From NCBI GenBank assembly GCA_022822065.1, contig JAJECI010000008.1:117254-181253 (forward strand): a DNA stretch of 64,000 bases, read 5' to 3'. The notes below the pieces were generated by a model, which was given only the letters and a program-made list of their open reading frames with translations, had not been told where the DNA came from and did no database searches. Shown piece after piece: positions 1-53,577 of the stretch. The position numbers and the translations under genes were made by a program. The stretch's first letter is position 1. Every line of letters starts with the position of its first letter. Source of the DNA: Candidatus Dadabacteria bacterium (GTDB lineage Bacteria; Desulfobacterota_D; UBA1144; Nemesobacterales; Nemesobacteraceae).

Positions 1-382
1 CGAGAGATTCAAACCATCGTGGCAAGGCTTCGAGAAAAGCATGCGCCTGCTCAAGCGGGGTTACTCCTGAACCTATCACAAAATATCGGCTAAACACCTT
101 CAGAAATATCTTGATGAGTTTGCGGGTCGCACAAACGTCCGCCAGTTGGATACGATGGAACAGATTAAAGAAGCGATCGGTGGCGTTGTGGGGAGAGGAT
201 TGACTTACAAAGAGTTGATTTCCGAGGTGTCGCTGGGCACCACGGCTCAGCAGGGCGACCGGATCCTTCTGGAACTCCGAGAGGTGGCCGATAAACGGCC
301 ACCCATCGGAAAGCTCTGGAACCCTCTCGCCCGGCTTACGGAAATCGCTACGCAACATAAACCAGAACCCCTCAGTAGATAA
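1..382 (+). pseudogene. IS1595-family (ISXO2-like) transposase, 3' fragment with an in-frame stop; 5' end lies outside the window
   Basis: The frame ending at TAA 380-382 reads ...SWQGFEKSMRLLKRGYS*TYHKISAKHLQKYLDEFAGRTNVRQLDTMEQIKEAIGGVVGRGLTYKELI. This matches the conserved C-terminus of IS1595/ISXO2 transposases (FWSLLKRGY.GTYHHVS.KHLQRYLDEF.FR.N...GKRLTYKEL). An in-frame TGA at 68-70 replaces the conserved Gly codon. No terminal inverted repeat is visible; the 3' end overlaps the convergent gene at 372. Confidence 0.55.
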
Positions 383-1472
383 ACGGGATCAGGATGTAGC
401 GTACCCGCTGGGTGTACAGTTCCCAAAGCCGACCGTACTTCGCGCGGCAACGGCGGTCGTCGCGTCTCGATCGATGCCACAACAGAACGACGAGCCACGC
501 GGGAAGCAGATACGGCACCCAGGACCCGAACCCGGTAGTAAACGTAAAGGCGAAGTAGATGAGGATCTCGCCTGTATAGTTGAGATGTCGTCCGATACCC
601 CAAAAGCCCGAAACCAGCAGACGACCTTCCAAGGATTCGGCCGGCTTGCCCCAGATCATCGCCTTGGAATCCAGCTTGAAGCGGTGCTTCTGCTCGTTTG
701 CGCCCCGGAATATCCAGCCTCCGAACAGGAACAGCAGAATGATTGCGGTGGCGCCGGCTGTGGAGAGGGAATCCGGTGAGTGAATGAGCCACCAGCCGGG
801 CAGGCAGTAGAAAAATGGCACTAACACGTAATCACCCCATATCAACAGCCATCCAAAGCGCTCGCTGATCATGTCCCAGGTATAAGTCATGCCGTATTCA
901 AACTGGAAGTAGTTGAAGAGATACAGGAAAGTGAGAAGCTGGTACACCGCCATCGCCAACGTCAGCTCACCGTACTTTTCGTATTGCACCACGGCGAACG
1001 ATGCGTTGATGAGGGCAAGCGCCACGAGCGAGGGACGGTAGCTAAACAGCTTAAGGTCCACTCCCAGCCAATTAGGGGTGTGATCCAGGCCTAAGAAGAA
1101 ACCACGCCCCATCCCCGGCACCGCGCCACGGGCGCGCCGTCCCGACAGATAGAGCAAGGCGGCCAAAACAAAGGCGAATCCGTTTGCCACGACAAACAAC
1201 GCGGCGAACCGGTCATGTATGGTAGACAGCGAGAACAGGCCGAAGACCTGGGCGAGGCAACAGAGCACCACCACACTCAGGAACAAGGTGAGACCGTTGA
1301 GTTTATAAACCTGCTGTTTACCTTCAATATCCGGCCCTGACCCGGTGCGTCCGGGCAGCACCATCGACCCGGCGAACAGGACCAAGACGAACACGAACAC
1401 CATTATCGCGGCTTCGAATATGGCCTCCCCGGCGAGCGCCGCCGATGAAAGATTGAAGTCAACCATGGGCAC
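372..1472 (-). CDS. ERG4/ERG24-family sterol reductase-like polytopic membrane protein (7-dehydrocholesterol / delta14-sterol reductase homologue)
   Basis: 366 aa and very hydrophobic. It carries the family signature GFWGIGRHLNYTGE (LL.SG.WG..RH.NY..E). The C-terminal block RDDRRCRAKYGRLWELYTQRVRYILIPFIY matches the invariant ERG4/ERG24 end (R.D.RC..KYG..W..Y...VPYRIIP.IY). Confidence 0.7.
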   Translation of the reverse strand: MPMVDFNLSSAALAGEAIFEAAIMVFVFVLVLFAGSMVLPGRTGSGPDIEGKQQVYKLNGLTLFLSVVVLCCLAQVFGLFSLSTIHDRFAALFVVANGFAFVLAALLYLSGRRARGAVPGMGRGFFLGLDHTPNWLGVDLKLFSYRPSLVALALINASFAVVQYEKYGELTLAMAVYQLLTFLYLFNYFQFEYGMTYTWDMISERFGWLLIWGDYVLVPFFYCLPGWWLIHSPDSLSTAGATAIILLFLFGGWIFRGANEQKHRFKLDSKAMIWGKPAESLEGRLLVSGFWGIGRHLNYTGEILIYFAFTFTTGFGSWVPYLLPAWLVVLLWHRSRRDDRRCRAKYGRLWELYTQRVRYILIPFIY

Positions 1473-1917
1473 CTCCTTCGGTTTGCGACAAGTGGTCCCG
1501 CCACTTCCGCATGATAACTTTTGGGAACTCCCGAACCACGGGGTTCAGTTCGACCAGTGGGGCATCCCATTGTTTCTCGCAACCCTGTTGCTTTTCCTCA
1601 ACCGCAACCCAATCCTGCCCCAGCAAAGGGCCGATGAGCATGCGGTTCGCGGTCTTAAAGACCGGGATCATCGCAAAGCAGGGAATGCGAACAGGTATCA
1701 AGGGAAGCTTGATAATCTCAAACAGGACAAAAAAAGGCCCGGGTTGTACGTTCATCAATGGGGAGGACAAACAGCCAGTGCTTGATCTCGTCGTCAATAT
1801 TTGACCACTGATTTGGATATTCAAAGCACAAACCCACGTTATAAGCATCAATCCTGACGCGGCGGTGATTGTCCTCGGTCGCTTGGTCAAGGGTCTTTCT
1901 CCCTTGCGATGGATCAT
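1459..1917 (-). CDS. hypothetical protein (start uncertain; internal Met would give 1459..1755)
   Basis: ORF-track ORF with no recognisable motifs. It overlaps 1718..2128 in a different frame, so one of the two, or a frameshifted single gene, is real. Confidence 0.3.
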   Translation of the reverse strand: MIHRKGERPLTKRPRTITAASGLMLITWVCALNIQISGQILTTRSSTGCLSSPLMNVQPGPFFVLFEIIKLPLIPVRIPCFAMIPVFKTANRMLIGPLLGQDWVAVEEKQQGCEKQWDAPLVELNPVVREFPKVIMRKWRDHLSQTEGGAHG

Positions 1918-2128
1918 ATGTTACCTCACCGCAAAGAAGAAATACACCGGATTGCGATGGATTGCAAGGGACAATGAGAAGAAGACTCATCAGGAACTTG
2001 ATATAAAAACGCCGGATCAGGTTTACTATGGTTTGGACAGGCTTGTGGAGAAGAAAAATGAAAATGGATTCCGGACTAAGCGCTAATTTTGGCTTCCCCA
2101 TAGTTGCATTTTGAAAGACGATGTACAC
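1718..2128 (-). CDS. hypothetical protein (possible 5' part of a frameshifted gene together with 1459..1917)
   Basis: 136-aa ORF divergent from recO. It overlaps the downstream ORF by about 200 nt in another frame. Confidence 0.3.
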   Translation of the reverse strand: MYIVFQNATMGKPKLALSPESIFIFLLHKPVQTIVNLIRRFYIKFLMSLLLIVPCNPSQSGVFLLCGEVTYDPSQGRKTLDQATEDNHRRVRIDAYNVGLCFEYPNQWSNIDDEIKHWLFVLPIDERTTRAFFCPV

Positions 2129-2807
2129 GCTTGAAGCACTGATTTTAAAAAAATCAAGTTACGGGGAAGCCGATCTCCTGGTAACCCTTTTCTCAAGGGA
2201 ACTCGGAAAATTCAGGGCGCTTGCCAAAAACGCGAAAAGAAGCCAAAAGCGCTTTGGAGGACGTCTCGATTTCTTTAACCGCCTGGCAATCGAAGTAACC
2301 CTGAACAAGGGAAGATTCAATCTCATCGGGGACGTTACACTTAAGGAAAGCTACAGGGAGATAGCGGAATCGGTTGACTCTTTCGTCGCGGCAACCCGAG
2401 TTCTCGAGCTCCTTGATTTCCTCGTCCCCGAGCAGGAACCCGCAGACAAGCTGTTCGACCTCGCGGCAGACACCCTGGGGTTTCTCTCGGAAAAACGGGA
2501 ACCGCACTCCGTTTTTCTCGTTTTCTTCCTCCGAGCGCTTACCCTTTGCGGCTACAGGCCCGATCTGCGCTTTGACAGGGAAAAAGACATCGCGGGGTTT
2601 GACGTTGAGAACGGAAGACTCAGCAATCCTGAGAAAACACAGGGAAAAAGAAACGTCTACCCCTTCCACATGGACATAATGAGACATCCGGAAATCATGG
2701 ACGCCAACCCCGAAAAGGTAAAAAACAACATACTGGTTCTCACGAGATACACCGAATACCGGACCGGAAGACGACTTGAGAAAACCGGATTTTCTGGAGA
2801 AACCTAA
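2121..2807 (+). CDS. recO: DNA repair protein RecO
   Basis: N-terminus MYTLEALILKKSSYGEADLLVTLFSRELGKFRALAKNA is typical of RecO (OB-fold N-domain). Size is 228 aa. Confidence 0.85.
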   Translation: MYTLEALILKKSSYGEADLLVTLFSRELGKFRALAKNAKRSQKRFGGRLDFFNRLAIEVTLNKGRFNLIGDVTLKESYREIAESVDSFVAATRVLELLDFLVPEQEPADKLFDLAADTLGFLSEKREPHSVFLVFFLRALTLCGYRPDLRFDREKDIAGFDVENGRLSNPEKTQGKRNVYPFHMDIMRHPEIMDANPEKVKNNILVLTRYTEYRTGRRLEKTGFSGET

Positions 2808-2843
2808 GCATGAAGCGGAGAGCCTCCGCCGGAAGCCTCCGGG

Positions 2844-4022
2844 TCAAGTCCTGTAATCTGAGTTAACCGAGACGTACTCGTGGCTTAGGTCGCTTGTTAG
2901 AATCGAGTAGGCCGCCTCCCCTTCCCCGAGGCTAAGTGTCACGGTAAAGGACGGTTTTTTGAACACGGAAGCGAACCTTGATTCCGGTTTAGACCTTATC
3001 CCTTTTGAAAACACCTCCATTCTGCCGAAATAAAGCCTTATCTTCTCCGGATCGAACTTCACACCGGCTCTTCCGGCGGCCGCCACTATCCTTCCCCAGT
3101 TCGCATCCTCCCCGTAAAACGCGGTCTTAACGAGTTGGGAAGTGGCTATCGTCCTCGCGATCTTCTCGGCGTCCTTTTTGGTCTTAGCTTCCGTAACGCT
3201 GATCCTGACGACCTTCGTAGCCCCTTCGCCGTCCGTTACTATCATCTCGGCGATTTCCCCGCACAGAGACGAAAGCGCATCCACGAACTTGCCGTAATCC
3301 CCGCTTTTCTCCTTGATTTCCCTGTTTCCCAGAACCCCGTTTGCGAGGATAAAAACGGAGTCGTTAGGGGAAGTGTCCCCGTCAACCGTTATGGCGTTAA
3401 AAGAACCACTTGCCGCTTCGGCAAGAGCTTTTGAAAGGGCTTTCCGCTGAATATTAAGATCGGTCATTATAAAACAGAGCATGGTCGCCATGTTAGGACA
3501 TATCATCCCCGCCCCCTTGCCGATAGCCGAGACGGTGGCGGTCTTCTCTCCCACAGCAAGTTGCCTTGACGCATACTTGGGAAAGGAGTCGGTCGTCATG
3601 ATGGCTTCGGCCGCCTCACGGGCGTTGTCTTCCCCAAGGCTCTTTACGAGCTTGGGAATGGCCTTCTTGATTTTCCCGACGCGAAGCCATTCCCCCGTAA
3701 CCCCGGTTGACGAGGGGATCACGAGCGATTCATCTATTCCGAGTCGCCTGGAGAGCGTGTTTGCAACTTCAAGCGAGTCTTCATAGCCCCTTTGGCCCGT
3801 AAAAGCGTTAGCATTTACGCTGTTTATTATTAGTGCCTGGCAGAGCCCACCTGCGATTCTCTCCTGCCCAACAAGCACAGGGGCGCCTTTTATCAGGTTT
3901 TTCGTGAATATGGCGGACGCGCGGGCCGGAACCGTTGAGAATATAAGCGCCAGATCCCTCTTTTCGTTTTTCTTAAGTCCGGCGGATACGCCGCTTAGCA
4001 GAAATCCAGATGTGTTTTTCAT
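2844..4022 (-). CDS. argJ: bifunctional glutamate N-acetyltransferase / amino-acid acetyltransferase ArgJ
   Basis: 392 aa. Contains the ArgJ autoproteolytic-site context PNMATMLCFIMTDL (ATML) and the overall ArgJ layout. Confidence 0.9.
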   Translation of the reverse strand: MKNTSGFLLSGVSAGLKKNEKRDLALIFSTVPARASAIFTKNLIKGAPVLVGQERIAGGLCQALIINSVNANAFTGQRGYEDSLEVANTLSRRLGIDESLVIPSSTGVTGEWLRVGKIKKAIPKLVKSLGEDNAREAAEAIMTTDSFPKYASRQLAVGEKTATVSAIGKGAGMICPNMATMLCFIMTDLNIQRKALSKALAEAASGSFNAITVDGDTSPNDSVFILANGVLGNREIKEKSGDYGKFVDALSSLCGEIAEMIVTDGEGATKVVRISVTEAKTKKDAEKIARTIATSQLVKTAFYGEDANWGRIVAAAGRAGVKFDPEKIRLYFGRMEVFSKGIRSKPESRFASVFKKPSFTVTLSLGEGEAAYSILTSDLSHEYVSVNSDYRT

Positions 4023-4305
4023 ATCGCAGGTGCCCGCAATTCAGATCTCTCCGAGGCAGATTTCAGTCTTGATATTCAGTATATCCAAATAATAGTACGC
4101 ATGTTATTTACTTAACGTGGTTCCAAGTATCAAATCAGACTGGCTTGGGAGTAATTGGAGACAGACCCGCGGACCGAACGGAATTGCGGAGCTGTTTATC
4201 GAAGTATGTATTTGATCTGATGACTGTTTTTTAATGCGGATTTCTGCAGGATACGCCCACAGCCTCGCTTGGTGCCTGAGGCTACGGCCATAGTTAAGAC
4301 TGGTT

Positions 4306-4968
4306 TTAGGAAGAAATGAGTGGCCTCAGTTGGTCACGATACGAAAACGGACGCACAGGAAGTTGGTCATGCTCTGGAGCTAGATGCATCCATTCCTCCT
4401 TGATCAGCAAGTCAAATACCTTCCTGTAAGACCTCTCTAACGGGGCGTAAGATTTAAGAACTTTAGTCATAATCATAGCCCCTTTAAACTGAGTAATCAG
4501 GAACTGGGAAACCATCTCGGTATTAATTCCCTCTCGAACCATCCCCAACTCCTTGCAGTCCTGCACGCATGTCGCAACACCGGCTTCGGTTTTTTCGAAA
4601 AACGCATCAATAATGGAGCGGAATTTCTCGTTTTTGGAACCTTGCTCCAATGACATCTTTGCGAGAAAACTGCCCGTCTGTAAAAAAACTTCACGCTTAG
4701 CGTAAATTCCCTCTACGTAGAACTTGACAAAGCGCTCAAGGGGATTGGTATCGCGGTCGAGGAGAATTTCTGATATGAGTTTTTCCTGATGCCTAAGGTG
4801 AATTTCGAGTATCTTCAGTGCCAACTCCTCTTTACTTTCGAAGTAGTAGTAGAAATTGCTCCTGGAAACCCCCGCCGTCTTTATGAGCATGTCGATAGAA
4901 GTTCCATTGTATCCAAAAGAACGAAAAAGCTCATAAGCAGTCTCAGTAATTCTATCCTTGTTGGTCAT
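4306..4968 (-). CDS. TetR/AcrR-family transcriptional regulator
   Basis: N-terminal HTH TAYELFRSFGYNGTSIDMLIKTAGVSRSNFYYYFESKEEL. The start is placed at ATG 4966-4968, which has an AAGGA Shine-Dalgarno about 10 nt upstream. The upstream ATG at 5007 falls inside a TTGACA-N17-TAATTA promoter-like element. Confidence 0.8.
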   Translation of the reverse strand: MTNKDRITETAYELFRSFGYNGTSIDMLIKTAGVSRSNFYYYFESKEELALKILEIHLRHQEKLISEILLDRDTNPLERFVKFYVEGIYAKREVFLQTGSFLAKMSLEQGSKNEKFRSIIDAFFEKTEAGVATCVQDCKELGMVREGINTEMVSQFLITQFKGAMIMTKVLKSYAPLERSYRKVFDLLIKEEWMHLAPEHDQLPVRPFSYRDQLRPLISS

Positions 4969-5152
4969 AGCAGAAAATCCTTTATAACTACTATTTTTAA
5001 TTACCACTCTAAAAAGAAGTTGTCAAGAAATTCTAGAAGTGATTACGGGGGGATACAGAACGATCGGTCCTTGCTTTGGCGATGCTGAAGCTTCTTCGAA
5101 AAAAGCGCCGGAAAAACCTTCCGGGGCCTCTTTTTTTGTGTTCTAATCCGGT

Positions 5153-6250
5153 TCACCCATGAGCCGAACCGGTAATCTCGCTCAGGCTCCCAATTCCGTT
5201 TTGATCCATGAACCTGAGGAGCCCACTGTTTATGGAGTTAGCAACCGAAAGCCCCTCACCCCGAAGGCCAGTGACTATCTGGAGGGCCTTGGCACCCGCG
5301 CGAAGCTTTTCAAGCGCCGAAGCGGTGTCGCACACCCCTCCGACTCCGATTATCTCGACCTGCCCGCCCGTAGTCCTGTAAATGTGAGAGATAATGGACG
5401 CGGAAAGCGACTTGTACTCAAAATCGTTTCCGCTTATTCCTCCCGGAAGACCTTCCCACCTCGTGCCGTATTTTCCTTTGACGAAGCTGCTGTCGGTAGT
5501 ATTGGTGGCTACCACTCCCGAAATCCCGCAATCGATTACCACCCCCACAACATCGTCTATCGCTTCGGTGGCAAGATCGGGAGAGATTTTTACGAACAGG
5601 GGTCGCTCGGAATCCCCGAGGGACTCCCTTACCGCCCGTATTATCTCTTCAAGCCGCCCCCTGTCCTGAAGCCTCCTTAACCCCGGGGTGTTAGGGGAGC
5701 TAACGTTTATGGCAAAGTAGGCCGCGTTGTCGCGAAACTTCCGGGCGACGGCCGCGTAGGCCCGCGGAGCGTCTTCGTGGCTTGTGTCAGAGTTTATTCC
5801 CAGGTTCACTCCAACCGGCATATCGAGGCGGCCGTACCGCGCAAGGTTCTGGAAAACAGCATCCATACCCGGGCTGTTAAGCCCAAGGGAGTTAAGACAC
5901 ACCTCCGGGGTCACCATGAACTGCCTCGGCTTCGGATTTCCCCCCTGTGGTCTCTCAACCACAGAACCCACTTCAACCCCGGCGAAACCCAGCGAGTAAA
6001 GCGCCCGGACCGCCCTCGCGGTCTTGTCCCACCCCGCACCGACGATAAGGGGATTCTCAAAAGGCACCCCGGCGACCGTAACGCCGAGCCTTTTGTCTCT
6101 GACCCTGGCTCCTCCGCTTGCGGCGAACTCAAGAAGTCTCAGCGTAAGACCCGAGAACTCGCAGAGGTGCATAAGTTCCTTTACGTTATGGTGCCACGTT
6201 TCGGAATCAAGACGGTCAAGAACCGGTCTTAGGAAAGTTTTATAGATCAT
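5153..6250 (-). CDS. pyrD: dihydroorotate dehydrogenase (quinone), class 2
   Basis: Motifs GFAGVEVGSVVERPQGGNPKPRQF, NVSSPNTPGLR and FVKISPD. Class-2 N-terminal extension present. Confidence 0.9.
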   Translation of the reverse strand: MIYKTFLRPVLDRLDSETWHHNVKELMHLCEFSGLTLRLLEFAASGGARVRDKRLGVTVAGVPFENPLIVGAGWDKTARAVRALYSLGFAGVEVGSVVERPQGGNPKPRQFMVTPEVCLNSLGLNSPGMDAVFQNLARYGRLDMPVGVNLGINSDTSHEDAPRAYAAVARKFRDNAAYFAINVSSPNTPGLRRLQDRGRLEEIIRAVRESLGDSERPLFVKISPDLATEAIDDVVGVVIDCGISGVVATNTTDSSFVKGKYGTRWEGLPGGISGNDFEYKSLSASIISHIYRTTGGQVEIIGVGGVCDTASALEKLRAGAKALQIVTGLRGEGLSVANSINSGLLRFMDQNGIGSLSEITGSAHG

Positions 6251-6308
6251 GCCCTTTGGAAAATTCTATCCGAACAAGGCGTCTGCAGGCAAAACCGAGC
6301 GTAGCAGG

Positions 6309-7409
6309 TCAAACATTGAACCTGAAAAATATGACGTCCCCGTCGCAAACCTCGTAATCCTTCCCCTCAAGCCTCATCTTCCCGGCTTCCCTCACCAGCT
6401 GCTCGGAACCTTCCCCCACGTAATCCTCGTAGGATATGGTCTCGGCCCTTATGAAGCCCCTTTCGAAATCGCTGTGGATAATCCCGGCCGCCTGGGGCGC
6501 CCTGGTTCCCTGCCTGACCGTCCAGGCCCTTACTTCTTTAGGCCCCGTGGTGAAATAGGTAAGAAGCCCGAGATTCGAGTACGCGCAGTTAACAAGCCTG
6601 TCAAGGCCGGAATCGCAAAGCCCGAGTTCCTCAAGAAAAGCCTCCTTCTCCTCGCCCCCGAGTTCAGCTATCTCGGCCTCTATCTTGGCCGAAACAATGA
6701 TAACATCATCCCCCAAGCTGCTTGCGTGCTCTCTCACCTTCTTAACCTCGGCATTCCCTTCAGCTCCCGAAACTTCGTCCTCCGATACGTTACAGACATA
6801 GATAACAGGCTTTGAACTGAGAAGAAAAAGCCCCCGCATGGTATCCGCGCATTCCTCTCCCCCGGGAAAATCACGCGCGCGCTTCCCCGTCTCGATAAAT
6901 TCCCTAAGCGGCCTTACCGTCTCAAGCTCCCTGATTACGTCCCTGTCCCCGCTCTTAGACTGGTTCGCGAGTCTTTCCTCTCTTTTCTCAACGGTTTCAA
7001 GGTCCTTCAGGATAAGCTCGTCCTCTATAGTGCGGATATCGCGGATGGCGTCAATCCCCTCCTCCACATGGACAACGTTTTCATCCTCAAAACACCTGAC
7101 CACGTGAAGTATCAAATCCACTTCCCTTATATGGGAGAGGAAGGCGTTTCCCCTGCCCTTTCCCTCGGAAGCTCCCTTCACAAGCCCCGCGATGTCAACG
7201 ATCTCTATGCTTGTGGGGACGGTCTTCTGAGGTTTTACGATATCCGAGATGGCGTAAAGTCTGGGGTCAGGAACTCCGACCACTCCTATGTTCGGGTCTA
7301 TGGTGCAGAAAGGGAAGTTGGAAGCGTCCGCGCCAGCGTTTGTAAGCGCGTTAAAAAGAGTCGACTTCCCGACGTTCGGGAGTCCCACTATTCCGCATCG
7401 AAGTCCCAT
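6309..7409 (-). CDS. ychF: ribosome-binding ATPase YchF
   Basis: N-terminus MGLRCGIVGLPNVGKSTLFNALT, DxxG motif, TGS C-terminal domain. Size is 366 aa. Confidence 0.95.
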   Translation of the reverse strand: MGLRCGIVGLPNVGKSTLFNALTNAGADASNFPFCTIDPNIGVVGVPDPRLYAISDIVKPQKTVPTSIEIVDIAGLVKGASEGKGRGNAFLSHIREVDLILHVVRCFEDENVVHVEEGIDAIRDIRTIEDELILKDLETVEKREERLANQSKSGDRDVIRELETVRPLREFIETGKRARDFPGGEECADTMRGLFLLSSKPVIYVCNVSEDEVSGAEGNAEVKKVREHASSLGDDVIIVSAKIEAEIAELGGEEKEAFLEELGLCDSGLDRLVNCAYSNLGLLTYFTTGPKEVRAWTVRQGTRAPQAAGIIHSDFERGFIRAETISYEDYVGEGSEQLVREAGKMRLEGKDYEVCDGDVIFFRFNV

Positions 7410-7441
7410 CTGTTCTTAGTTTTCCGCTGCCTGTTAGGAAA

Positions 7442-7520
7442 TGGGGTGGATGACCGGATTTGAACCGGCGACCTCTTGGGCCACAACCAAGTGCTCTAAC
7501 CGGACTGAGCTACACCCACC
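7442..7520 (-). tRNA. tRNA-His (anticodon GTG), with encoded G-1 and 3' CCA
   Basis: The reverse complement folds as a cloverleaf. Acceptor gtgggtg/catccac, D-arm gctc-agtccggtt-gagc, anticodon stem cttgg/ccaag around loop ttGTGgc, T-arm gccgg-ttcaaat-ccggt. There is an extra 5' G opposite discriminator C, which is characteristic of tRNA-His. Confidence 0.85.
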
Positions 7521-7746
7521 GTCGAAACCTTCATTGTCTATGGGGTAAAAACCGAATTTGCTAATATACCGGCAAGCTCATTAACAGACAAATTGCCGAG
7601 AGAAAGTCATCAAGAGATCAGCCGTTAACCTCGGCAAGAGGCTATCAACTGGAACTATGCCCATTGAAACTCCTTTATCATACTTCCAACCTGCGCTTAC
7701 TTGTCGTTCCGTGGAAAAATCTGACCGTACCTAGTATAGTATTAAG

Positions 7747-9507: not shown

Positions 9508-9778
9508 ACGGTTAAAGGAGGAGGCACGCACGGGCCCGCTACCCGCGGATTGATTGTCAGCCTCACTCACACGCCCATTTTCCCCTGCAAAGTCTCGAGC
9601 ACCGCCAGCTTAAAAGCTTCATCTCCGCTCGCCCGCAGGATCCCGCCCAAAGCTGAAAAACCGCCGATTTTCCCGACCCCTGACGGGTTCCAACCGGGAT
9701 ATTTGATTTAATCGAGAACTTGTTTATACTAGGCTGTTTTTATTTGACCACAACAGGCATCCGAGGAGCGAAGAACCA

Positions 9779-11662: not shown

Positions 11663-11706
11663 GTTCTCGAAGAAACAACCATTTTTATTTTCAGGAGAGC
11701 ATATCG

Positions 11707-13983: not shown

Positions 13984-14001
13984 AAATTTCTTTTCTTGCA
14001 T

Positions 14002-14060
14002 GGCCAAGGCGAGAAGTGTCGCTTTTCGCCTTGGCCGCAGCTACTTTTATCTTGTTTTTT
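14002..14060 (+). terminator. intrinsic terminator after aceA (stem ggccaaggcgagaag / cttttcgccttggcc, then T-rich tract)
   Basis: Inverted repeat at 14002-14016 and 14022-14036, matching 14 of 15, with a 5-nt loop. It is followed by gcagctacttttatcttgttttttg. Confidence 0.5.
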
Positions 14061-14422: not shown

Positions 14423-15367
14423 TCACTCAGTATGTTGAGATTGTATTCTTGAGGTTAATCTATTTTTTCTCCGGCTTTTTGATGGCCACCGTAATATTCC
14501 ATCAAGCTCTTCAAGTAATAGCGGTTCCCCATAACCAACATCGTAAGGCTGAATTTCACCTGCAGGTTTCAAGCTTTCATCAAACCAGAGGATAGAAAGA
14601 CATTGATTCCATTCTTTTATAAAGATTGCTTCTTCACACAGCATGTCGTAATTTCCGACACCATTGTTGAACCAAATCTCAGTAGGAATCTCTTCATTGT
14701 ATTGCTCAGTCTCAGATCGGTTTTTGATCAGGTGAAAAGCTACGCTGTTTTGAGGAACCGGTACACCGATGTCAATCCATCCCTTAAGTTCGCGTAGAGA
14801 CTTTGAACTGGAAACATAGCGAATTTGACCTTCTTCAATAAGAACAAAGGAACAGAGCCCTTCACAGTTGGCGGCGAACCTGGAACCCGTAGAGTGTATA
14901 GAGGCTCTATAACGTTTTGACAGCTCCTTTATCGTATCGAGACATATATCAACATCCTCAATATCTTTCTTGAAAAAATCATATGGTAAGAGGCATTCCG
15001 CTGCAAAAATATCGCATAAAACCTCTTCCTCGGGACGCTGTCTGTAACTCATTAGATCGGTTGTTTTTATAGAACCATCTTGATGCTTTGAGGGTAGTTC
15101 CAGAATGATATGGCCAATTTCGTGTAGAATAGTAAACCGCTGTCTTTCCTCCGTATGTTTCCCGTTAACAGTGATAATGTTCCTTCCGTTTAAGAAAAAA
15201 GTTTGACCCGATTCTTCATCGTCAAGATCATGGCAAACTTCAATTTCAGCCCCAGCAACCGCAGAGTAAAGCTTAAGGTTAACAGGCACGGAATTTATTT
15301 CAGATTCCCTAATGAAATCGCGTGCCTTTAAAACGACTTCAAGTTCTTTCGCTTTGTGCTTACCCAT
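14423..15367 (-). CDS. CapP-like ImmA/IrrE-family Zn-metallopeptidase (CBASS regulator)
   Basis: HEIGH motif (FTILHEIGHIIL) in a DUF955/ImmA-like core, 314 aa. It overlaps the upstream HTH gene by 8 nt and is divergent from the CBASS operon. Confidence 0.75.
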   Translation of the reverse strand: MGKHKAKELEVVLKARDFIRESEINSVPVNLKLYSAVAGAEIEVCHDLDDEESGQTFFLNGRNIITVNGKHTEERQRFTILHEIGHIILELPSKHQDGSIKTTDLMSYRQRPEEEVLCDIFAAECLLPYDFFKKDIEDVDICLDTIKELSKRYRASIHSTGSRFAANCEGLCSFVLIEEGQIRYVSSSKSLRELKGWIDIGVPVPQNSVAFHLIKNRSETEQYNEEIPTEIWFNNGVGNYDMLCEEAIFIKEWNQCLSILWFDESLKPAGEIQPYDVGYGEPLLLEELDGILRWPSKSRRKNRLTSRIQSQHTE

Positions 15368-15737: not shown

Positions 15738-15759
15738 TCTATATTTCTTAAAAAAATTC

Positions 15760-15788: not shown

Positions 15789-15973
15789 GTTGCCTGTACA
15801 GACAACATTCTATGCTAATTCACTAAAACAAAATAAAATTTAGCTCGATGAACATGTATAAAGCGTAGCTTGTTTCTGTCAACATTATAATAGAAACTGC
15901 AGATTTTCTCAAGCGTTTTTTACCGTTGGTCTTAAAAAATAGGGCTGAGAGAGAAAAAGAATTCGACGAAGTT

Positions 15974-16969
15974 ATGAGAAAGGATACTGAAATAGCGAAA
16001 AAACGAATCCTATGTATTGACGGAGGGGGAGTCCTCGGCACTTTTCCTGCAGCATTTCTCGCTGAACTGGAAAAACACCTTGATCACCCTATTGGAAAGT
16101 ATTTCGACCTAATTGCGGGAAGTTCCACAGGAGGAATTATTGCACTTGGTCTCAGCATGGGAATTTCCGCATCGCAACTGTTGAATTTCTACGAAAACAG
16201 AAGTTATGAGGTATTTGGTAAAAATAATAGACCGTTTCTGAGTTTTTTCCTCAGAAAAATCCGAGCAGTTAAATGGTGCTTTCTAAGAAAGTATAACTCT
16301 GAACCTCTCCGAACTGTTCTTTATGATGTGTTTGGGGAAAAACGTATAGGTGAAGCGAAAACCCGGTTACTTATTCCAGCTTGGAATCCGGTGGCTAATT
16401 CCGTCTACATCTATAAAACAGCACATCATCCCCGTCTAAAAACAGATTATAAATCAAGCGCGGTTGATGTAGCTATGGCGACATCAGCAGCTCCTTCCTA
16501 TTTCAAGCAACACGTTACACAGCATGGTGTTGTCCTCATTGACGGCGGCATATGGGCAAACAACCCCGTAGCGATTGCTGTTGTTGAGGCCATCTCCCTG
16601 CTGAACTGGCCAAGAGAGTCACTTCGCATCTTAAGCCTAGGGTGTCTGCAGGAGGCATACAATATACCAAAACACGCTGGCCTCGGAATGCTTAACTCAA
16701 AAATTATTAACTTATTCATGGACGGACAGTCTCAAGGGGCTATGGGTATCGCAAAGCTGTTAACGGGTCATGAACACGAACGTACCGCTATATACAGGGT
16801 GAATCAGACGGTTCCATATAATACCTACAAAATGGACGACACAAAGACCATACAAGACTTAAAAGGACTCGGCCATTCCGAGGGGCGAAGTTGGCAACCC
16901 AACCTTGAGGCTATATTTTTCGACAAACCGGCAGAAGTTTTCAAACCATATTATAAGTTGGAGGATTAA
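15974..16969 (+). CDS. patatin-like phospholipase (CBASS effector, CapV/CapE-like)
   Basis: Oxyanion-hole motif ILCIDGGGVLG, nucleophile motif GSSTGG (GxSxG) and catalytic DGG in IDGGIWANNP. Start is taken at ATG 15974. The ORF track starts at an in-frame TTG at 15926, which is less likely. Confidence 0.85.
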   Translation: MRKDTEIAKKRILCIDGGGVLGTFPAAFLAELEKHLDHPIGKYFDLIAGSSTGGIIALGLSMGISASQLLNFYENRSYEVFGKNNRPFLSFFLRKIRAVKWCFLRKYNSEPLRTVLYDVFGEKRIGEAKTRLLIPAWNPVANSVYIYKTAHHPRLKTDYKSSAVDVAMATSAAPSYFKQHVTQHGVVLIDGGIWANNPVAIAVVEAISLLNWPRESLRILSLGCLQEAYNIPKHAGLGMLNSKIINLFMDGQSQGAMGIAKLLTGHEHERTAIYRVNQTVPYNTYKMDDTKTIQDLKGLGHSEGRSWQPNLEAIFFDKPAEVFKPYYKLED

Positions 16970-16971
16970 GA

Positions 16972-18171
16972 ATGAGAATTGATGAAGCTAGATATTCTAA
17001 CTTTTTAGACGAAGTTGCAGGAAACCTAGATATTTCCCCGAGCAAGTACAGAGATGCTGTCGACCGCTACCAAGCTGTTGCGAAATGGCTCGAAGGCGGA
17101 GATTACCCCGGACCTTCTGATTCTGGGTTAGACATCTATCCACAAGGCTCATTTCGTTTAGGTACAGTCACGAGACCAATAAGGAACAGTATTGAAGCAG
17201 ATTATGACATTGATCTTGTGTGCGAAGTCCCCTTGCTAAAAGAGTGGGCCAAGCCTGAGTACGTAAAGCAGTTAGTCGGCGACAGACTAAAAGAACACGA
17301 CATGTATAGGAGAATGCTAGATGAAGAAGGTAGGCGATGCTGGACGCTAATATATTCTGAGCAAGACAATATTGGCTTCCACCTGGATGTTCTGCCGTCA
17401 GTCCCCTATTTGGGAGGCTACCTAAACACGGCGATTGCGATAACGGACAAAGATCTTTCCCTTTACAGGTGGTCAATAAGCGATCCTAAGGGTTACGCTC
17501 AATGGTTTGATGATAGAAACATGTCCGCATTTAACCTGGTATCTGCTGAACAGAAGAGACTTATTCAAAATCAAGCCCCGGAAATATACGCAAGAATCGA
17601 AGACGTACCTAATCAATTAGTTCGTACTCCCCTTCAACGTGCAATTCAAATTATGAAACGTCACCGTGACATTAAGTTCAATGACACAAGATCTATTGAG
17701 TATGCCCCGATTTCAATAATCATTACGACTCTCTCCGCATATTTCTATCGAAACGAACCAGATGTCTACTCCGCTCTGAAGAATATTGTAGGTAGTTTAA
17801 ATGCACATTCTGCCCTATTTGAAAATCGGGTTCTTGATCCTGCTCTCAAATCAATTACTCCCATAAAAAGGACCTCTGATGGCAAATGGCATATAGGCAA
17901 TCCTGTTAATCCAGAGGAAAACTTTGCAGACAGGTGGCATGAGAATAACCATGCCAGAGCAAAAGCATTCTTTCAGTGGTTGGACTCTCTACAAAAAGAC
18001 CTTATTAACATACTTAATGAAAACAATCGAGACCTAGCAAAAAGCACCCTTATCTCAGCCCTAGGCAGTGTCCCAGTATCGCAAAATCTGGAACTGATAA
18101 TCCCTCCTAAAGTAATCGAAAGCCCCCCGAAGATTCATATTTCTAGGCCAGCGCAACCGTGGAAAGACTAG
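16972..18171 (+). CDS. cGAS/DncV-like nucleotidyltransferase (CD-NTase, SMODS domain) of CBASS
   Basis: Pol-beta-type NTase motif QGSFRLGT...DYDIDLV (GS...[DE]h[DE]h), with a third acidic residue in GFHLDVLPS. GGAGG Shine-Dalgarno 7 nt upstream. It lies between a patatin effector and an E2-like gene and is translationally coupled to the next gene (TAG-a-ATG). Confidence 0.8.
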   Translation: MRIDEARYSNFLDEVAGNLDISPSKYRDAVDRYQAVAKWLEGGDYPGPSDSGLDIYPQGSFRLGTVTRPIRNSIEADYDIDLVCEVPLLKEWAKPEYVKQLVGDRLKEHDMYRRMLDEEGRRCWTLIYSEQDNIGFHLDVLPSVPYLGGYLNTAIAITDKDLSLYRWSISDPKGYAQWFDDRNMSAFNLVSAEQKRLIQNQAPEIYARIEDVPNQLVRTPLQRAIQIMKRHRDIKFNDTRSIEYAPISIIITTLSAYFYRNEPDVYSALKNIVGSLNAHSALFENRVLDPALKSITPIKRTSDGKWHIGNPVNPEENFADRWHENNHARAKAFFQWLDSLQKDLINILNENNRDLAKSTLISALGSVPVSQNLELIIPPKVIESPPKIHISRPAQPWKD

Positions 18172-18172: not shown

Positions 18173-18901
18173 ATGAAAGGCAAAATCAGAAAAGAGATTT
18201 GCGAGTTGAAGCAAACTTACAAATGCCTCACAGACATATCTCATCGAAAACAGGAAACAATAATAAAAGGCCCCCTTTCATTTGAAGCGTCTTTTGACGA
18301 GTTCCCGGTGATTGTTGAGTGCTTTGATATTGAACTAGCTATTCCTGACTCTTACCCAGAAGTCCTTCCAATTGTACGAGAAACAGGTGGAAGAATCGAC
18401 CAAGATTATGAACACCTGAATCAGGATGGAACCCTTTGTCTTACTACACCGATTGAGAAACGCCTGCTTTTTCTAGAGCAAAAATCTTTACTCGGATTCG
18501 TAAATCTTCTTGTTATCCCATATTTATATGGTTACTCCTACTGGAAAAAGTATGGTCATCACCCTTTTGGTGAGCGTGCACACGGAGTTGAGGGAATTAT
18601 TCAGTACTATCAGGATGAGTTAGGTTTAAGCGGTAATGTACATATACTAGCAATGCTCGCTTTTCTTTTCCAGTTCGGTTATCGTGGCCATCTTCTCTGT
18701 CCCTGCGGAAGCGGATTTAAAGTTCGGGAATGTCACAGCGAAACTTTATTAAAGCTTCATAAATATCACTCTAATCACACCTTAAGAAATGATTTCTTAT
18801 ATCTACTTTCTCTTTGCTTAGAAAAAAAAGAAGAGTTCTCTGAAGAGCTTTCAAAACAGATAGATCGAATACTAAAAAAAGAAAAATTAAGAAAAAAGTA
18901 A
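18173..18901 (+). CDS. Cap2-like E2 (UBC-fold) protein without E1 or JAB partner, with a C-terminal SEC-C-type zinc-binding motif
   Basis: IELAIPDSYPEVLPIVRE resembles the E2 block (FP.DYPFKPPKV.F). HLNQDGTLCLTTP resembles the HPN-x(n)-G-ICL active-site Cys region. LLCPCGSGFKVRECH is a SEC-C-like CPCGSG.K...CH metal knuckle. Confidence 0.65.
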   Translation: MKGKIRKEICELKQTYKCLTDISHRKQETIIKGPLSFEASFDEFPVIVECFDIELAIPDSYPEVLPIVRETGGRIDQDYEHLNQDGTLCLTTPIEKRLLFLEQKSLLGFVNLLVIPYLYGYSYWKKYGHHPFGERAHGVEGIIQYYQDELGLSGNVHILAMLAFLFQFGYRGHLLCPCGSGFKVRECHSETLLKLHKYHSNHTLRNDFLYLLSLCLEKKEEFSEELSKQIDRILKKEKLRKK

Positions 18902-40949: not shown

Positions 40950-42911
40950 CTAGGCCTCCCCTCGCGCGGAATACTCGTGAACCTCGTCAATCAGCCTCAG
41001 AACATTGTCAACCGGCGTCTGCGGCAGTACTCCGTGACCCAGGTTGAATATGTGCCCAGGCCTTCCTCCCACTCTGTCAAGTATCTTCCTCGCCTCTCCC
41101 ACGACGTGAGAGGAGGTTGAGAGCATTGAAACCGGATCAAGATTCCCCTGGACCGCAAGAGAACTCCCGGCCCTCTGCCAGCCGTCAAGAATGTCGACCC
41201 TCCAGTCAAGACCGATAACTCCAGCTCCGGTCTTTCCCATGAGTTCGAGCAGGGAACCGGTTCCGGTTCCGAACAGTATTACCGGAACTTCCGGAGGAAG
41301 GGCCGAGATAAGTTTCTTCACGTGCGGGAAGACGAATCTTTCGTAATCCGCCGGGGAAAGACAACCCACCCAGCTGTCGAAAATCTGCACGGCGTCGGCC
41401 CCCGCGCCCACCTGGGCGCAGAGATAATCCGAGATGCTCTCGGTAAGAATCTCCATGAGCCTCTCCCACAGGGAAGGATCACCGTACATCAGTTTTTTCG
41501 TGTTTACGTAGTTTTTCGAACCGCTCCCCTCAACCGCGTAGGAAGCCACGGTAAAAGGTGCGCCGCTAAAACCAATAAGCGAAACTTCGGGGGCAAGCGC
41601 CTTTCTCGTGATACGAAGAGCCTCGTAGACGAAATCCATGCTCTCGGGATCAAAGTCCCTCAGGGCCTCTATGCGCTTTCGGGTCCTAAGAGGCTTGGCT
41701 ATCACGGGACCGTCGACGCTTGAATACTCAAGGGAAAGCCCCAGGGGCTCCAGTATGAGCAGTATGTCCGAGAAAATGATGGCCGCGTCCACGCCGAAGC
41801 GGTCAACCACCATCAGCGTGATTTCCGAGGCCATATCAGGGGTCTTGCAAAACTCCTTGAAAGAAACGCGGGAGCGGGCCTCCCTGTATTCCCGAAGAAA
41901 TCTGCCCGCCTGCCGCATGAGCCAGACGGGAGTATAATCGGCTTTCTCAAGGCGACACGCCTTCATAAACGCCCCTTCGGAAGTGACTTCCCTCCTTTGG
42001 TCCTGCGCGCCGTCCCCTGACCAGACCATCTGCGTGCGGTTCCAGTTCCGGGTATCCACACCGTTTTTAAATGCCGTTCTTTTCTTGGCGAGGAGCGTCG
42101 CCGACCTTCTGGCCACCTCTCTCACCAGGTTTCCCATTTTCGGGCTGTCGGGCTCATAGTCAACGGATATGCCGTTTTCCCTGAGCGTCTCCGTGGTGGT
42201 CGGCCCGATCGAGCATACAAGCGCCTTTTTCACTCCCTCGATGAATTCGGCGACACGCTCCTCTTTGCCCGCCACCTCAAAAAGGTTTGATACCTGCCGG
42301 GAACTTGTGAACAGGAGGCAGTCCTCCTCCCCCTCGGATACGGATATTACGGCGTCGCGCAGGGGACCCAGATCCTCCGGAAGCGCCCACCTGTAGATGG
42401 GAATTCTTCTCACGTCGGCCCCTCTTTTCTCAAGAGAAGCGAGAAACTCCTCGTTTGAAACCCCGTATTCCTGAACGTACACGACTAGGTTCTCAAGCGA
42501 CATGTCCCTCTGGTCAAAAGTGGAAAGTATGTCCCTCCACGTGTTCGGTTCGGAAACGGTTATATCCGGTTTCATCCCGAGTTTGCGAAGGACCGCCACG
42601 GGTTTAGGACCTCTGGCAAGAATCGTCGTTCCGCGCAGGGCTTCGACATATTCCTTTTCTCCCGATTCCGCAATTACGATGTCGGAGAGTATTCGCGTTC
42701 CTACCCCGGTCATGAGAACAAGAAGGTCGATTTTGCCCGAGAAGAGATCATCGGCAAACCCGGCAACGTAAGGACTTTTAAGATCGGGGACTTCCCTCAT
42801 CGAGGGCGCGACCCTGGGCACGCCGCCGTGATAGGAGATGAGTTTTTTCATCTCCTCGCAACGGCGACTTTCAAAAGACGTTACCTTAAGCCCGTTAAAA
42901 CCCTGTTTCAT
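40950..42911 (-). CDS. hemE: fused uroporphyrinogen-III synthase (HemD-like N-domain) and uroporphyrinogen decarboxylase (HemE C-domain)
   Basis: The C-terminal ~340 aa carry the UroD signature PVWLMRQAGR and the rest of HemE. The N-terminal ~300 aa have the HemD (HEM4) two-lobed pattern. Total 653 aa. Confidence 0.8.
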   Translation of the reverse strand: MKQGFNGLKVTSFESRRCEEMKKLISYHGGVPRVAPSMREVPDLKSPYVAGFADDLFSGKIDLLVLMTGVGTRILSDIVIAESGEKEYVEALRGTTILARGPKPVAVLRKLGMKPDITVSEPNTWRDILSTFDQRDMSLENLVVYVQEYGVSNEEFLASLEKRGADVRRIPIYRWALPEDLGPLRDAVISVSEGEEDCLLFTSSRQVSNLFEVAGKEERVAEFIEGVKKALVCSIGPTTTETLRENGISVDYEPDSPKMGNLVREVARRSATLLAKKRTAFKNGVDTRNWNRTQMVWSGDGAQDQRREVTSEGAFMKACRLEKADYTPVWLMRQAGRFLREYREARSRVSFKEFCKTPDMASEITLMVVDRFGVDAAIIFSDILLILEPLGLSLEYSSVDGPVIAKPLRTRKRIEALRDFDPESMDFVYEALRITRKALAPEVSLIGFSGAPFTVASYAVEGSGSKNYVNTKKLMYGDPSLWERLMEILTESISDYLCAQVGAGADAVQIFDSWVGCLSPADYERFVFPHVKKLISALPPEVPVILFGTGTGSLLELMGKTGAGVIGLDWRVDILDGWQRAGSSLAVQGNLDPVSMLSTSSHVVGEARKILDRVGGRPGHIFNLGHGVLPQTPVDNVLRLIDEVHEYSARGEA

Positions 42912-47409: not shown

Positions 47410-48360
47410 TTGAATTCAACGAAAAGCGCCTTAACTTCGCTTACAGACCTTATAACAAGGTTCTTCATCCTCTGGATAATTCTCTTCTCGGCCGTCGCGT
47501 ACTTTTTCCCCTCCGTTTTTGAGGATCTCGGGTTCCTCATAGTACCCATGCTCGCGGTGATAATGTTCGCGATGGGGATAACGCTGAGAATAGATGACTT
47601 CAGAAGGGTTTTCTTAAGACCGCTTGAGATTCTGGTGGGCGTCTGCGCTCAATACGTCGTGATGCCCCTTCTGGGTTTCCTGCTCGCCCTTGCGTTCGGA
47701 ATAAACCCGCTGATCGCGGTCGGAATCGTTCTCGTGGGTTCCTGTCCCGGGGGAACGGCGTCAAACGTGATTACCTATCTGGCAAGGGGCGATCTCGCGC
47801 TTTCCGTAACGCTCACTTCGGTTTCAACCCTCCTTTGCCCGTTCCTGCTGCCCGCACTTATGTACATCTACGCGGGAAGGTGGATAGATGTTCCAGTTGC
47901 GGATCTTTTTATCTCCGCGCTTCAGATAGTACTGCTGCCGGTGCTTTTCGGAGTGGTCTTGAGGAAACTGCTCGGGAGAAAATCAGAGACCGTACTGCCC
48001 TTCCTGCCCTCCGTATCGTCTCTCGTGATAGCGTTTGTCGTAGGAATAGTCGTGGCTCTTAACGCGGAATCCATAAGAACCATCGGCGCCGTGGTCTTCC
48101 TTGTAGTAGTCATTCATAACGCCCTGGGACTTACCTGCGGTTATCTTATAGCGAAGGCGCTTGGCTTCCGGGAAAGCAGCGCCAGGGCGATATCCGTGGA
48201 AGTGGGAATGCAGAACTCGGGGCTTGCGGCGGCTCTCTCCCAGTTGCATTTCGGTTATCTCTCCGCCCTTCCCGCCGCGCTTTTCAGCATCTGGCATAAT
48301 ATCTCGGGCGGAGTAATAGCCTCGTTATGGAGAAACAGCAACGTTCATGAACAAACCTGA
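47410..48360 (+). CDS. bile acid:sodium symporter (BASS/SBF)-family transporter
   Basis: 10-TM protein with the BASS-like GVCAQYVVMPLLGF and GSCPGGTASNV motifs. Confidence 0.7.
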   Translation: MNSTKSALTSLTDLITRFFILWIILFSAVAYFFPSVFEDLGFLIVPMLAVIMFAMGITLRIDDFRRVFLRPLEILVGVCAQYVVMPLLGFLLALAFGINPLIAVGIVLVGSCPGGTASNVITYLARGDLALSVTLTSVSTLLCPFLLPALMYIYAGRWIDVPVADLFISALQIVLLPVLFGVVLRKLLGRKSETVLPFLPSVSSLVIAFVVGIVVALNAESIRTIGAVVFLVVVIHNALGLTCGYLIAKALGFRESSARAISVEVGMQNSGLAAALSQLHFGYLSALPAALFSIWHNISGGVIASLWRNSNVHEQT

Positions 48361-52255: not shown

Positions 52256-52900
52256 ATGTTGACAGCACGGTCAATAAGGGAGAGCCTTCCGCAAAAAGCC
52301 CCCGAGATACACCGCAAGCTCAAGGAATTCGAAAGCATCATCCAAAACGCTTCCGAAGAAGTGATCTTCGAAGAACTGGTTTTCTGCATATTCACGGCCG
52401 GAACGAGCGCCAGGATGGGGCTGAGCGCGCTTCAAGCCGTAAAGAGCATACTCCCAAGCGCAAGCGAGGATGAGCTCAGGCAGACGCTTCGGGGAGTATA
52501 CAGATTCCCAAACGTGCGCTCGAAGCACGTGATCCACACAAGAAATTATCTTGACCGCGAGTACGGACTCCGGCTGAGACCGCTTCTTCTGTCGTTTGAA
52601 GATCCGGCCAAGAGAAGAGATTTCTTCGCGCTTAACAAGGATATAAAGGGGCTCGGCTTCAAGGAAGCAAGCCATTTCCTGAGAAACGTCGGCTTCCGCG
52701 GCTACGCGATACTTGACAAGCACATACTCCAGTGTCTTTTCGAACTCGGCATAACAAAATCCACGCGGGCACCGCGCTCAAGGTCAGAATACATTGAGAT
52801 TGAAAACAGGTTCAGGGGATTCACGGAAAAAAACGGATTTGATTTCGATGAAATGGACCTGTTGCTCTGGAGCGAGAAAACGGGCGAAATACTGAAATAA
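52256..52900 (+). CDS. Ogg2-type 8-oxoguanine DNA glycosylase/AP lyase (HhH-GPD), copy 1
   Basis: ~210 aa. HhH-GPD motif DIKGLGFKEASHFLRNVGFRGYAILDKH, with the catalytic Lys and Asp spacing of archaeal-type Ogg. Confidence 0.6.
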   Translation: MLTARSIRESLPQKAPEIHRKLKEFESIIQNASEEVIFEELVFCIFTAGTSARMGLSALQAVKSILPSASEDELRQTLRGVYRFPNVRSKHVIHTRNYLDREYGLRLRPLLLSFEDPAKRRDFFALNKDIKGLGFKEASHFLRNVGFRGYAILDKHILQCLFELGITKSTRAPRSRSEYIEIENRFRGFTEKNGFDFDEMDLLLWSEKTGEILK

Positions 52901-52926: not shown

Positions 52927-53577
52927 ATGACCGAGAAACAAAAACAAGAACTCCTGGGACTCTACGAGCTTAGAAAAGAAGAAATACAGAACCGCCTTCT
53001 GGAATTCAGACAGGCCTTCCAGGAGGCCGATGACCGCCAGATATTCCGTGAACTCTCATTCTGCATACTGAGTTCCGGGGTCGGTCCCAAAGTAGCCGGC
53101 CAATGCATGAGGGCCATAGGAGAAAAACTTGTGGACGGAGAAGAAGACGAACTGCTGGTACGCATCGGGGCGATTCACAAATACGCCGAGAACGCTTCCC
53201 GCTATATCGTTTTTACCAGGGAATATCTTAAGAAAGAACACGGATTTCTTCTCAGATCGCTTGTCAGTTCATTTGAAAACGGGGTGGAAAGGAGAGATTT
53301 TTTCGCGAAAAACCCCGGGATAAAAGGACTCGGATACATGCAGGCAAGCCATTTTCTGAGGAACCTGGGGTTCTCCGGCTACGCGATTCTTGACCGAAAC
53401 AACCTTGCGTCCCTTTCCGAACTGGGGATCATAGGCGAGACGAAATACCCCCTGACGAGAAAAAGATACCTTGAAACGGAAAGCCTTATGACGGAAGCCG
53501 CACACGAACTGGAAATCAGTCTTGACGAATTTGACCTGCTTCTTTGGTCAAGAAAAAGAAAATACGTTCCGAGATAG
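52927..53577 (+). CDS. Ogg2-type 8-oxoguanine DNA glycosylase/AP lyase, copy 2 (tandem paralogue)
   Basis: ~45% identical to copy 1. Same motif GIKGLGYMQASHFLRNLGFSGYAILDRN. Confidence 0.6.
   Translation: MTEKQKQELLGLYELRKEEIQNRLLEFRQAFQEADDRQIFRELSFCILSSGVGPKVAGQCMRAIGEKLVDGEEDELLVRIGAIHKYAENASRYIVFTREYLKKEHGFLLRSLVSSFENGVERRDFFAKNPGIKGLGYMQASHFLRNLGFSGYAILDRNNLASLSELGIIGETKYPLTRKRYLETESLMTEAAHELEISLDEFDLLLWSRKRKYVPR

Follow-up and report, generated by a model that had tools for sequence, protein, structure and literature searches.

The closest described relatives of the locus analyzed here are the "clusters of steroid genes" (CSG) of Ircinia sponge microbiomes, found in 115 of 537 metagenome-assembled genomes (MAGs) from ten phyla, for which horizontal transfer was inferred and an ERG24 omega (dN/dS) of 0.13 was obtained (Kelly et al. 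2022, Microbiome 10:164, PMC9531527). Their layout is ERG24-CYP51-LSS, flanked by DFR/sdmB and hypothetical/sdmA (PMC9531527). Sponge-symbiont sterol clusters with sdmAB and SMT have also been reported by Brown et al. (2023, Nat Commun 14:1859, PMC10070321), who tested the methyltransferases and not the reductase. Among bacterial members of the ERG4/ERG24 family, the delta14-sterol reductase MaSR1 of Methylotuvimicrobium (Methylomicrobium) alcaliphilum has been solved (4QUV); its N359 and R395 (LBR N547 and R583) bind NADPH (PMC4951196), and Y241 and D363 (yeast Y257 and D374) are the proposed catalytic pair (PMC12489058). Methylococcus capsulatus possesses another enzyme, 8,14-Bsr of the NTF2 family, which makes an 8(14)-ene from 4,4-dimethylcholesta-8,14,24-trienol (Lee et al. 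2026, PMC13277303). Dadabacteria are outside the ten phyla of the Ircinia study (PMC9531527) and are listed among the bacteria with sterol pathway genes (Hoshino and Gaucher, PMC8237579). We analyzed a stretch of 64,000 nucleotides (hereafter the window) of contig JAJECI010000008.1 from a Candidatus Dadabacteria bacterium (assembly GCA_022822065.1), whose first 2 kb contain an intact gene for a predicted sterol delta14-reductase amid the ruins of such an operon. The gene family, the operon, and the habitat were already known; what is new is that in Dadabacteria the operon has decayed stepwise and left a lone reductase, which is probably still active.

The reductase open reading frame (ORF) lies on the minus strand at 372..1472 and reads 366 amino acids from a GTG at 1472. 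The true start is probably the ATG at 1466, yielding 364 amino acids, because the orthologue at one related locus (L005) has only that ATG and database relatives are called at 364 residues; a Shine-Dalgarno sequence (GAAGGAGG) is found 5 nt upstream of it. An exact-sequence look-up of the 366-residue product gave no match because the databases hold the 364-residue form, and one database relative (P0001) is 99% identical. The original prediction of an ERG4/ERG24-type sterol reductase homologue was borne out by both profile and fold. Pfam ERG4_ERG24 (PF01222; cut-off 27 bits) matched residues 24–366 over profile positions 72–432 with 228.1 bits (E = 2.4e-67), whereas DUF1295 (PF06966), the family to which a profile search might instead have assigned the protein, reached 25 bits over residues 208–335 only, 200 bits below. 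The name "DUF1295 domain-containing protein," carried by the close relatives that have one, is, judged from these scores, an under-annotation by NCBI. As NCBIfam has no model for either the reductase or CYP51, both were searched against PDB sequences. The top solved relative of the reductase was MaSR1 (E = 5e-64, 220 bits) and the second a eukaryote-type delta14 reductase (E = 4e-32, 115 bits), both being delta14 reductases. An AlphaFold (AF2) model computed from 33 clade members (pLDDT 78.9, pTM 0.81) matched 4QUV in Foldseek with a TM-score of 0.77 (E = 2e-16, 342 columns), and no other fold was returned at E < 0.001. The model agrees with the family fold, the 10-transmembrane (10-TM) fold of MaSR1 with its C-terminal NADPH pocket, bar TM1.

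Functional residues are also conserved. Of the two expected motifs, the RH.NY..E box is present as RHLNYTGE (residues 295–302), and the C-terminal block (RCRAKYGRLWELYTQRVRYILIPFIY) follows the announced pattern except in spacing (Y.....Y, not Y...Y) and in reading ILIP, not IIP. In the PDB alignment, MaSR1 Y241, N359, and R395 align to Y184, N298, and R334 of the window protein, all three invariant across the 33 aligned clade members, and every one of the approximately 115 positions invariant among these members is retained. The position of MaSR1 D363 is occupied by E302, which keeps the carboxylate; because Glu is found there in all 33 members, the substitution is clade-wide. The window protein differs further from MaSR1 by its identity of 38% over 331 residues and by an N-terminus about 60 residues shorter. 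N-terminal truncation of the ORF was considered and rejected, as all clade members are of equal length. With 8,14-Bsr, the protein would share the CYP51 product as substrate but neither fold nor family, being of the canonical ERG24 type. The idea that MaSR1-like proteins might be makers of 8(14)-sterols was likewise discarded, since that enzyme, 8,14-Bsr, has an NTF2 fold (PMC13277303).

The window reductase belongs to a clade of about a thousand database members, mostly of ~366 amino acids and 61–72% identical to it, so that its occurrence in bacteria is less unusual than first proposed, the operon itself having been described from Ircinia (PMC9531527). By scanning species-representative genomes we obtained 347 matching stretches, the best 80 of which were compared. 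Nearly all of these come from MAGs of marine-sponge symbionts, assigned to Nitrospirales, Alpha- and Gammaproteobacteria, Binatia, Acidobacteriota, Gemmatimonadota, Rhodothermales, Opitutales, Porisulfidus, and Dadabacteria. A five-gene operon, sdmB-sdmA-C14R-CYP51-SQMO/OSC (C14R being the reductase), is complete in 69 of the 80 loci; CYP51 is directly downstream of the reductase in 77, and SMT is usually close by. The operon partners were identified by their matches to SdmA (403 bits), SdmB (293 bits), and osq_cycl (2,3-oxidosqualene cyclase, OSC; 736 bits), and the CYP51 protein of locus L004 has CYP51 6MCW as its top PDB match (E = 1e-99). The predicted link to sterol metabolism is thus sustained by gene order at the orthologous loci. 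Full-length identity of 61–72% to proteins encoded in complete clusters makes the window gene an orthologue of CSG ERG24, with which it shares the length of ~366 residues and the invariant RHLNYTGE and WGDYVLVP motifs. The sponge-microbiome habitat is also shared, and a "KELL22" sample is the source of the sister locus L083. The clusters of Brown et al. are alike in operon type and habitat, and most of the related loci have SMT beside the cluster, which the window lacks.

From its closest characterized relatives and from this coupling to CYP51, we assign the window protein to the delta14 type. PF01222 covers several activities, and the protein could instead reduce another double bond (delta7 as DHCR7, delta24(28) as ERG4, or delta24) and modify host sterols, a role suggested for the sterol reductases of Coxiella and Chlamydiae; Brown et al. 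discuss chlamydial and sponge-associated reductase homologues that act on sterols of the host (PMC10070321), and the Asp-to-Glu change and absent TM1 of the clade could accompany an altered specificity. This is nevertheless very improbable, given that neither PDB match is to anything but a delta14 reductase, that the gene stands immediately upstream of CYP51, the maker of the delta14 substrate, in the 77 loci mentioned above, and that the KEGG assignment given to the clade by Kelly et al. is TM7SF2/ERG24 (PMC9531527).

The suggestion that the gene was acquired from eukaryotes is contradicted by its relatives. A recent transfer, for example from the sponge host, would suit a family typical of eukaryotes in an organism that lives in an animal, but the 120 closest proteins (the best 120 matches listed) and all 80 loci are bacterial, and the score to bacterial MaSR1 is about twice that of the eukaryote-type match. 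The reductase moreover travels with the bacterial-only sdmA and shows the typical operon overlaps, and G+C over positions 1–2000 (0.546) is close to the window average. In a neighbor-joining tree (rooted on MaSR1 and computed without bootstrap), the Dadabacteria reductases form one group nested in sponge-symbiont sequences, beside copies from Bryobacterales and Longimicrobiales and far from MaSR1. A eukaryotic donor is therefore hardly credible. The operon in which this clade is normally found (sdmB-sdmA-C14R-CYP51-SQMO/OSC, plus SMT) moves horizontally among marine-sponge symbionts, as already deduced for the CSG.

Around the window reductase, little of this operon is left. The features of the region are as follows:

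1..249, plus strand: 3' remnant of an IS1595-family transposase gene (Pfam DDE_Tnp_IS1595, NCBIfam transpos_IS1595)
240..358, minus strand: stub of CYP51 (sterol 14-alpha-demethylase), located by tblastn and by alignment to the intact CYP51 of L004 and L083
372..1472, minus strand: predicted sterol delta14-reductase gene (ERG24/TM7SF2-type, ERG4/ERG24 family), intact (PF01222, 228 bits; 4QUV, E = 5e-64; AF2/Foldseek)
1459..1971, minus strand: pseudogene remnant of sdmA (Rieske-type sterol C-4 methyl monooxygenase), from NF052579, tblastn, and homology to L083
1972..2113, no strand: filler of 142 bp that separates recO from the sdmA remnant, present only in the window and L003
2121..2807, plus strand: recO (Pfam RecO_N/RecO_C on the syntenic gene of L001), the upstream edge of the relic island

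The two small ORFs upstream of the reductase had been left unassigned and thought to be functionally linked to it. The link is real, in that both match the SdmA equivalog NF052579, at positions 223–263 and 262–344 of 351, with 56 and 38 bits (cut-off 600 bits). A tblastn search with an intact SdmA-like protein placed its residues 213–274 at 1924..1730 and residues 274–365 at 1734..1465, in different frames. The two ORFs are thus a single sdmA pseudogene, 5'-truncated and frameshifted near 1730–1734, which keeps only residues ~213–365 of 366 and has lost the N-terminal Rieske domain; the same frameshift is found in L004. Between its original stop and the start of C14R there is still the 14-nt overlap known from intact operons, including the CSG. 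On the other side of the reductase, CYP51 is reduced to its start codon (358..356) and ~40 codons, matching CYP51 residues 24–55. A deletion with its junction within 240–249, at a short GC(C/T)GTGG microhomology, removed the other 1.25 kb (~418 codons) of the gene and ends at the CYP51 stop beside the IS1595 remnant. Homology of the window island to L083 extends from 1971 to 240.

An IS1595 remnant downstream of the reductase had been noticed from the outset and was confirmed by profile matches, although it does not abut the gene, the CYP51 stub lying between them. On the plus strand it reads ...YHKISAKHLQKYLDEFAGRTNVRQLDTMEQ... from 2 to ~232, with an in-frame TGA at 68–70, and comprises the final 39 positions of the Pfam profile DDE_Tnp_IS1595 (E = 3.9e-7) plus a C-terminal tail, or positions 176–215 of 215 in NCBIfam transpos_IS1595. 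It runs past the window start and contains no complete DDE transposase ORF. The corresponding remnant is ~420 bp long in L003, where it ends just before ubiA, and only 76 bp long in L083 and L004, equivalent to window positions 174–249. The 142-bp filler takes the place of ~1.2 kb of L083 sequence with a remnant of sdmB and an intact gene of the FA_hydroxylase family. A plus-strand ORF at the filler (1865..2086; ..HQELDIKTPDQVYYG..) resembles the C-terminus of an integrase or transposase (the end of an integrase core); Pfam returned nothing for this ORF up to E = 10, and we therefore did not adopt the filler as an insertion sequence (IS) remnant.

No other part of the pathway was detected. By tblastn, OSC, SQMO, SMT, and sdmB had no match anywhere in the 64-kb window; Pfam searches of the 39 other large window ORFs revealed no triterpenoid gene; and when the window and loci L003, L004, and L005 were searched for pieces of OSC, SQMO, SMT, or sdmB with tblastn at high sensitivity (word size 2, E ≤ 5), only weak methyltransferase matches far from the island were returned. 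The contiguous ERG24-CYP51-LSS arrangement that defines the CSG is absent from the window, where sdmA is a pseudogene, CYP51 a 40-codon stub, and LSS/SQMO missing. On this gene content, the locus is a remnant of a steroid gene cluster and not an intact member. With sdmA inactivated, CYP51 reduced to a stub, and no cyclase at the locus, the reductase appears as an orphan, outside any working local pathway.

Comparison with sister loci reveals the order of the losses. Thermodesulfobacteriota or Candidatus Dadabacteria are the labels of the closest loci, two names that stand for the same class in NCBI taxonomy. By identity, the nearest are L003 (OZ241855.1, a 1,643,464-bp chromosome; 99%), L004/L083 (93%), and L005/L086 (89%), none of which has a cyclase within 10 kb. 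L083 has a fuller, ancestral form of the island at the same chromosomal site: between recO on one side and ubiA-ubiX-ubiD on the other lie the FA_hydroxylase-family gene, a scrap of sdmB, the sdmA remnant with the same frameshift, C14R, an intact CYP51, and the 76-bp IS1595 tail. CYP51 is intact in L004 also. Relative to L083, the window and L003 have lost ~1.2 kb upstream (the FA_hydroxylase gene and the sdmB scrap) and 1.25 kb of CYP51. L005/L086 carry a C14R-CYP51 pair in a different chromosomal context. These data suggest a scenario in which a first step, common to L004/L083, would have truncated sdmB and sdmA in the recO-ubiA island and left the locus without a cyclase, and a second step, beside the IS1595 remnant, would have removed CYP51, the FA_hydroxylase gene, and the sdmB scrap in the window/L003 lineage. 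The reductase would then be the sole intact survivor of the island, in a genome-reduced Dadabacterium.

The island itself seems to have been exchanged recently. Window positions 1..2460, that is, the relic island and the 5' end of recO, are ~99% identical to L003, whereas the flank from 2460 to 12000 is only 75–95% identical; likewise, the window and L003 copies of the reductase differ by a dS of 0.03, and those of six neighboring genes by 0.17–0.90. The block looks like a recombinational exchange between diverged Dadabacteria strains.

The FA_hydroxylase-family gene of L083 (7366..8106, plus strand) is intact, encodes 246 amino acids with His boxes and the C-terminus ...NYGGITPIWDWIFGT, and has its 3' end also at L004 (2..118). 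It was not found at the other 80 loci, and its top NCBIfam match, to OlsE, scores a weak 25 bits; the product may be a sterol enzyme resembling ERG25/ERG3, or unrelated.

Pairwise dN/dS values (Nei-Gojobori) among the four Dadabacteria copies are 0.16–0.25, low as is the published CSG value of 0.13, comparable to recO (0.25) and a little higher than nearby core genes (0.03–0.17). Between the window and L003, both devoid of CYP51, there are 8 synonymous and 4 non-synonymous substitutions, against a neutral expectation of ~3:9 (binomial P = 0.0024), and the sdmA remnant has a pseudo-omega of 0.54. The reductase is thus intact and constrained by purifying selection, and such low ratios indicate that it is probably still in use. 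The strongest competing explanation is that of a functionless relic, a reductase without substrate in which no disabling mutation has yet occurred since the CYP51 deletion. Both of its operon neighbors are a pseudogene or a stub, the small genome is scarred by IS elements, the window/L003 stem branch has, by parsimony counts, an omega of ~0.37 (8 synonymous and 9 non-synonymous changes) against 0.14–0.17 on the L004 and L005 sister branches, and the near identity of block 1..2460 to L003 implies that little time has elapsed. A relic, on the other hand, would not be expected to keep a full-length ORF with every invariant clade residue, nor to depart from neutrality as it does after the loss of CYP51, while the true pseudogene next to it, sdmA, is frameshifted and has a higher pseudo-omega; lone intact copies are also known from gammaproteobacterial symbionts (L053 and L074). 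We therefore consider an inert relic unlikely, and an enzyme still in use the more likely alternative.

Our preferred interpretation, to which we give a probability of about 0.72, is that of an intact NADPH-dependent sterol delta14-reductase, the only intact survivor of an eroded sponge-symbiont operon, which is probably still active. As established for the family, NADPH would bind to a cytoplasm-facing pocket in the C-terminal half, and the conserved Tyr would protonate C-15, with hydride transfer to C-14 of a delta8,14-sterol, the product of CYP51. Because the local supplier CYP51 is gone, the substrate must come from outside the locus, and the enzyme probably acts on delta14-unsaturated sterols made elsewhere, be it at another locus, in neighboring symbionts, or in the host. 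Database matches to the cyclase and CYP51 were checked for the 1,643,464-bp chromosome that bears the 99% identical reductase: among the best 120 matches listed, which reach down to identities of 67–68%, it has neither a CYP51 of the Dadabacteria type (at least ~68% identity) nor an operon-type cyclase (at least ~67%). Should the genome encode no more divergent supplier, only nearby symbionts or the host would be left as sources of the substrate.

Several observations weigh against this interpretation. Throughout the clade, nothing corresponds to the N-terminal 50–70 residues (TM1) of MaSR1 and the Pfam model, the shortness being, from its conservation across members, no truncation; and the clade has Glu throughout where MaSR1 and the eukaryotic enzymes have the catalytic-site Asp. 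The neutrality test on the window and L003 relies on 12 substitutions only, inside a recently exchanged block, and the stem branch hints, non-significantly, at relaxation after the loss of the pathway. A scan of 1..2900 for promoter and terminator consensus sequences scored the minus strand no better than shuffled sequence and revealed no sigma70-like promoter upstream, the consensus being uninformative for this phylum and silent on expression. Finally, a divergent cyclase or CYP51 may exist elsewhere in the genome, which would put an end to the orphan status at the genome level.

As to the origin of the substrate, one tentative and rather doubtful scenario is that a genome-reduced symbiont, having lost first the cyclase and the C-4 demethylase and in the end CYP51, keeps its reductase under selection and finishes delta8,14-sterols released by full-operon neighbors or by the host, a "Black Queen" cross-feeding and a division of labor in the sponge holobiont. 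If it held true, the lone copies in L053 and L074 would be further cases.

Several consequences follow for sponge holobionts. How sterane "sponge biomarkers" are read, and which holobiont member is taken to make which lipid, depends in part on sterol synthesis by bacterial sponge symbionts, and Dadabacteria symbionts once carried part of a widely exchanged sterol operon. That the operon can decay gene by gene with its reductase under selection hints that an individual sterol-tailoring enzyme may be of benefit by itself in a sterol-rich host. As a practical caution, counts of ERG24 or CYP51 in MAGs overestimate the capacity to produce sterols.

Variation was also observed among the related loci. 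In most of them, SQMO and OSC are fused in a protein of ~1130–1145 amino acids (e.g., L002 10516..13950), and an in-frame stop parts SQMO from OSC in the Bryobacterales and Longimicrobiales loci nearest to the Dadabacteria reductase (L030 12479..15871 and L021 12529..15990). L032 appears to retain only the first 92 residues of the SQMO-OSC fusion and may be another eroded cluster. The lone copies of the gammaproteobacterial sponge symbionts (L053 10001..11104 and L074 3813..4916) are intact 367-amino-acid reductases of the clade, and neither has a second sterol gene within 10 kb. A short P450 (~299 amino acids) and a GPP34-domain protein recur together within a few kb of the sterol operon (L002 177..1076 and 3992..4645; ~25 other loci), and L002 additionally has an MMPL/sterol-sensing-domain transporter; the pair and the transporter may be accessory sterol-handling genes.

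Elsewhere in the window, two tandem paralogues of Ogg-HhH 8-oxoguanine glycosylase (52256..52900 and 52927..53577, plus strand), a HemD-HemE fusion of 653 amino acids (40950..42911, minus strand), and a transporter of the sodium/bile-acid symporter family (SBF; 47410..48360, plus strand) were found, and no evidence ties them to the reductase. A TetR-family regulator gene (4306..5007, minus strand) lies between argJ and the DHODH gene, in a stretch that does not align with L003; at the same site L083 has a TetR gene and a DDE_Tnp_1 transposase, which indicates a variable intergenic spot. A low-GC island at 14000–20000 (0.40–0.43, vs. ~0.53) carries a CBASS anti-phage system, composed of a CapP-like regulator (14423..15367, minus strand; PADLOC capP, 4e-49), a patatin phospholipase effector (15926..16969, plus strand; 1e-100), a CD-NTase cyclase (16972..18171, plus strand; 6e-113), and an E2 protein (18173..18901, plus strand; 7e-75).

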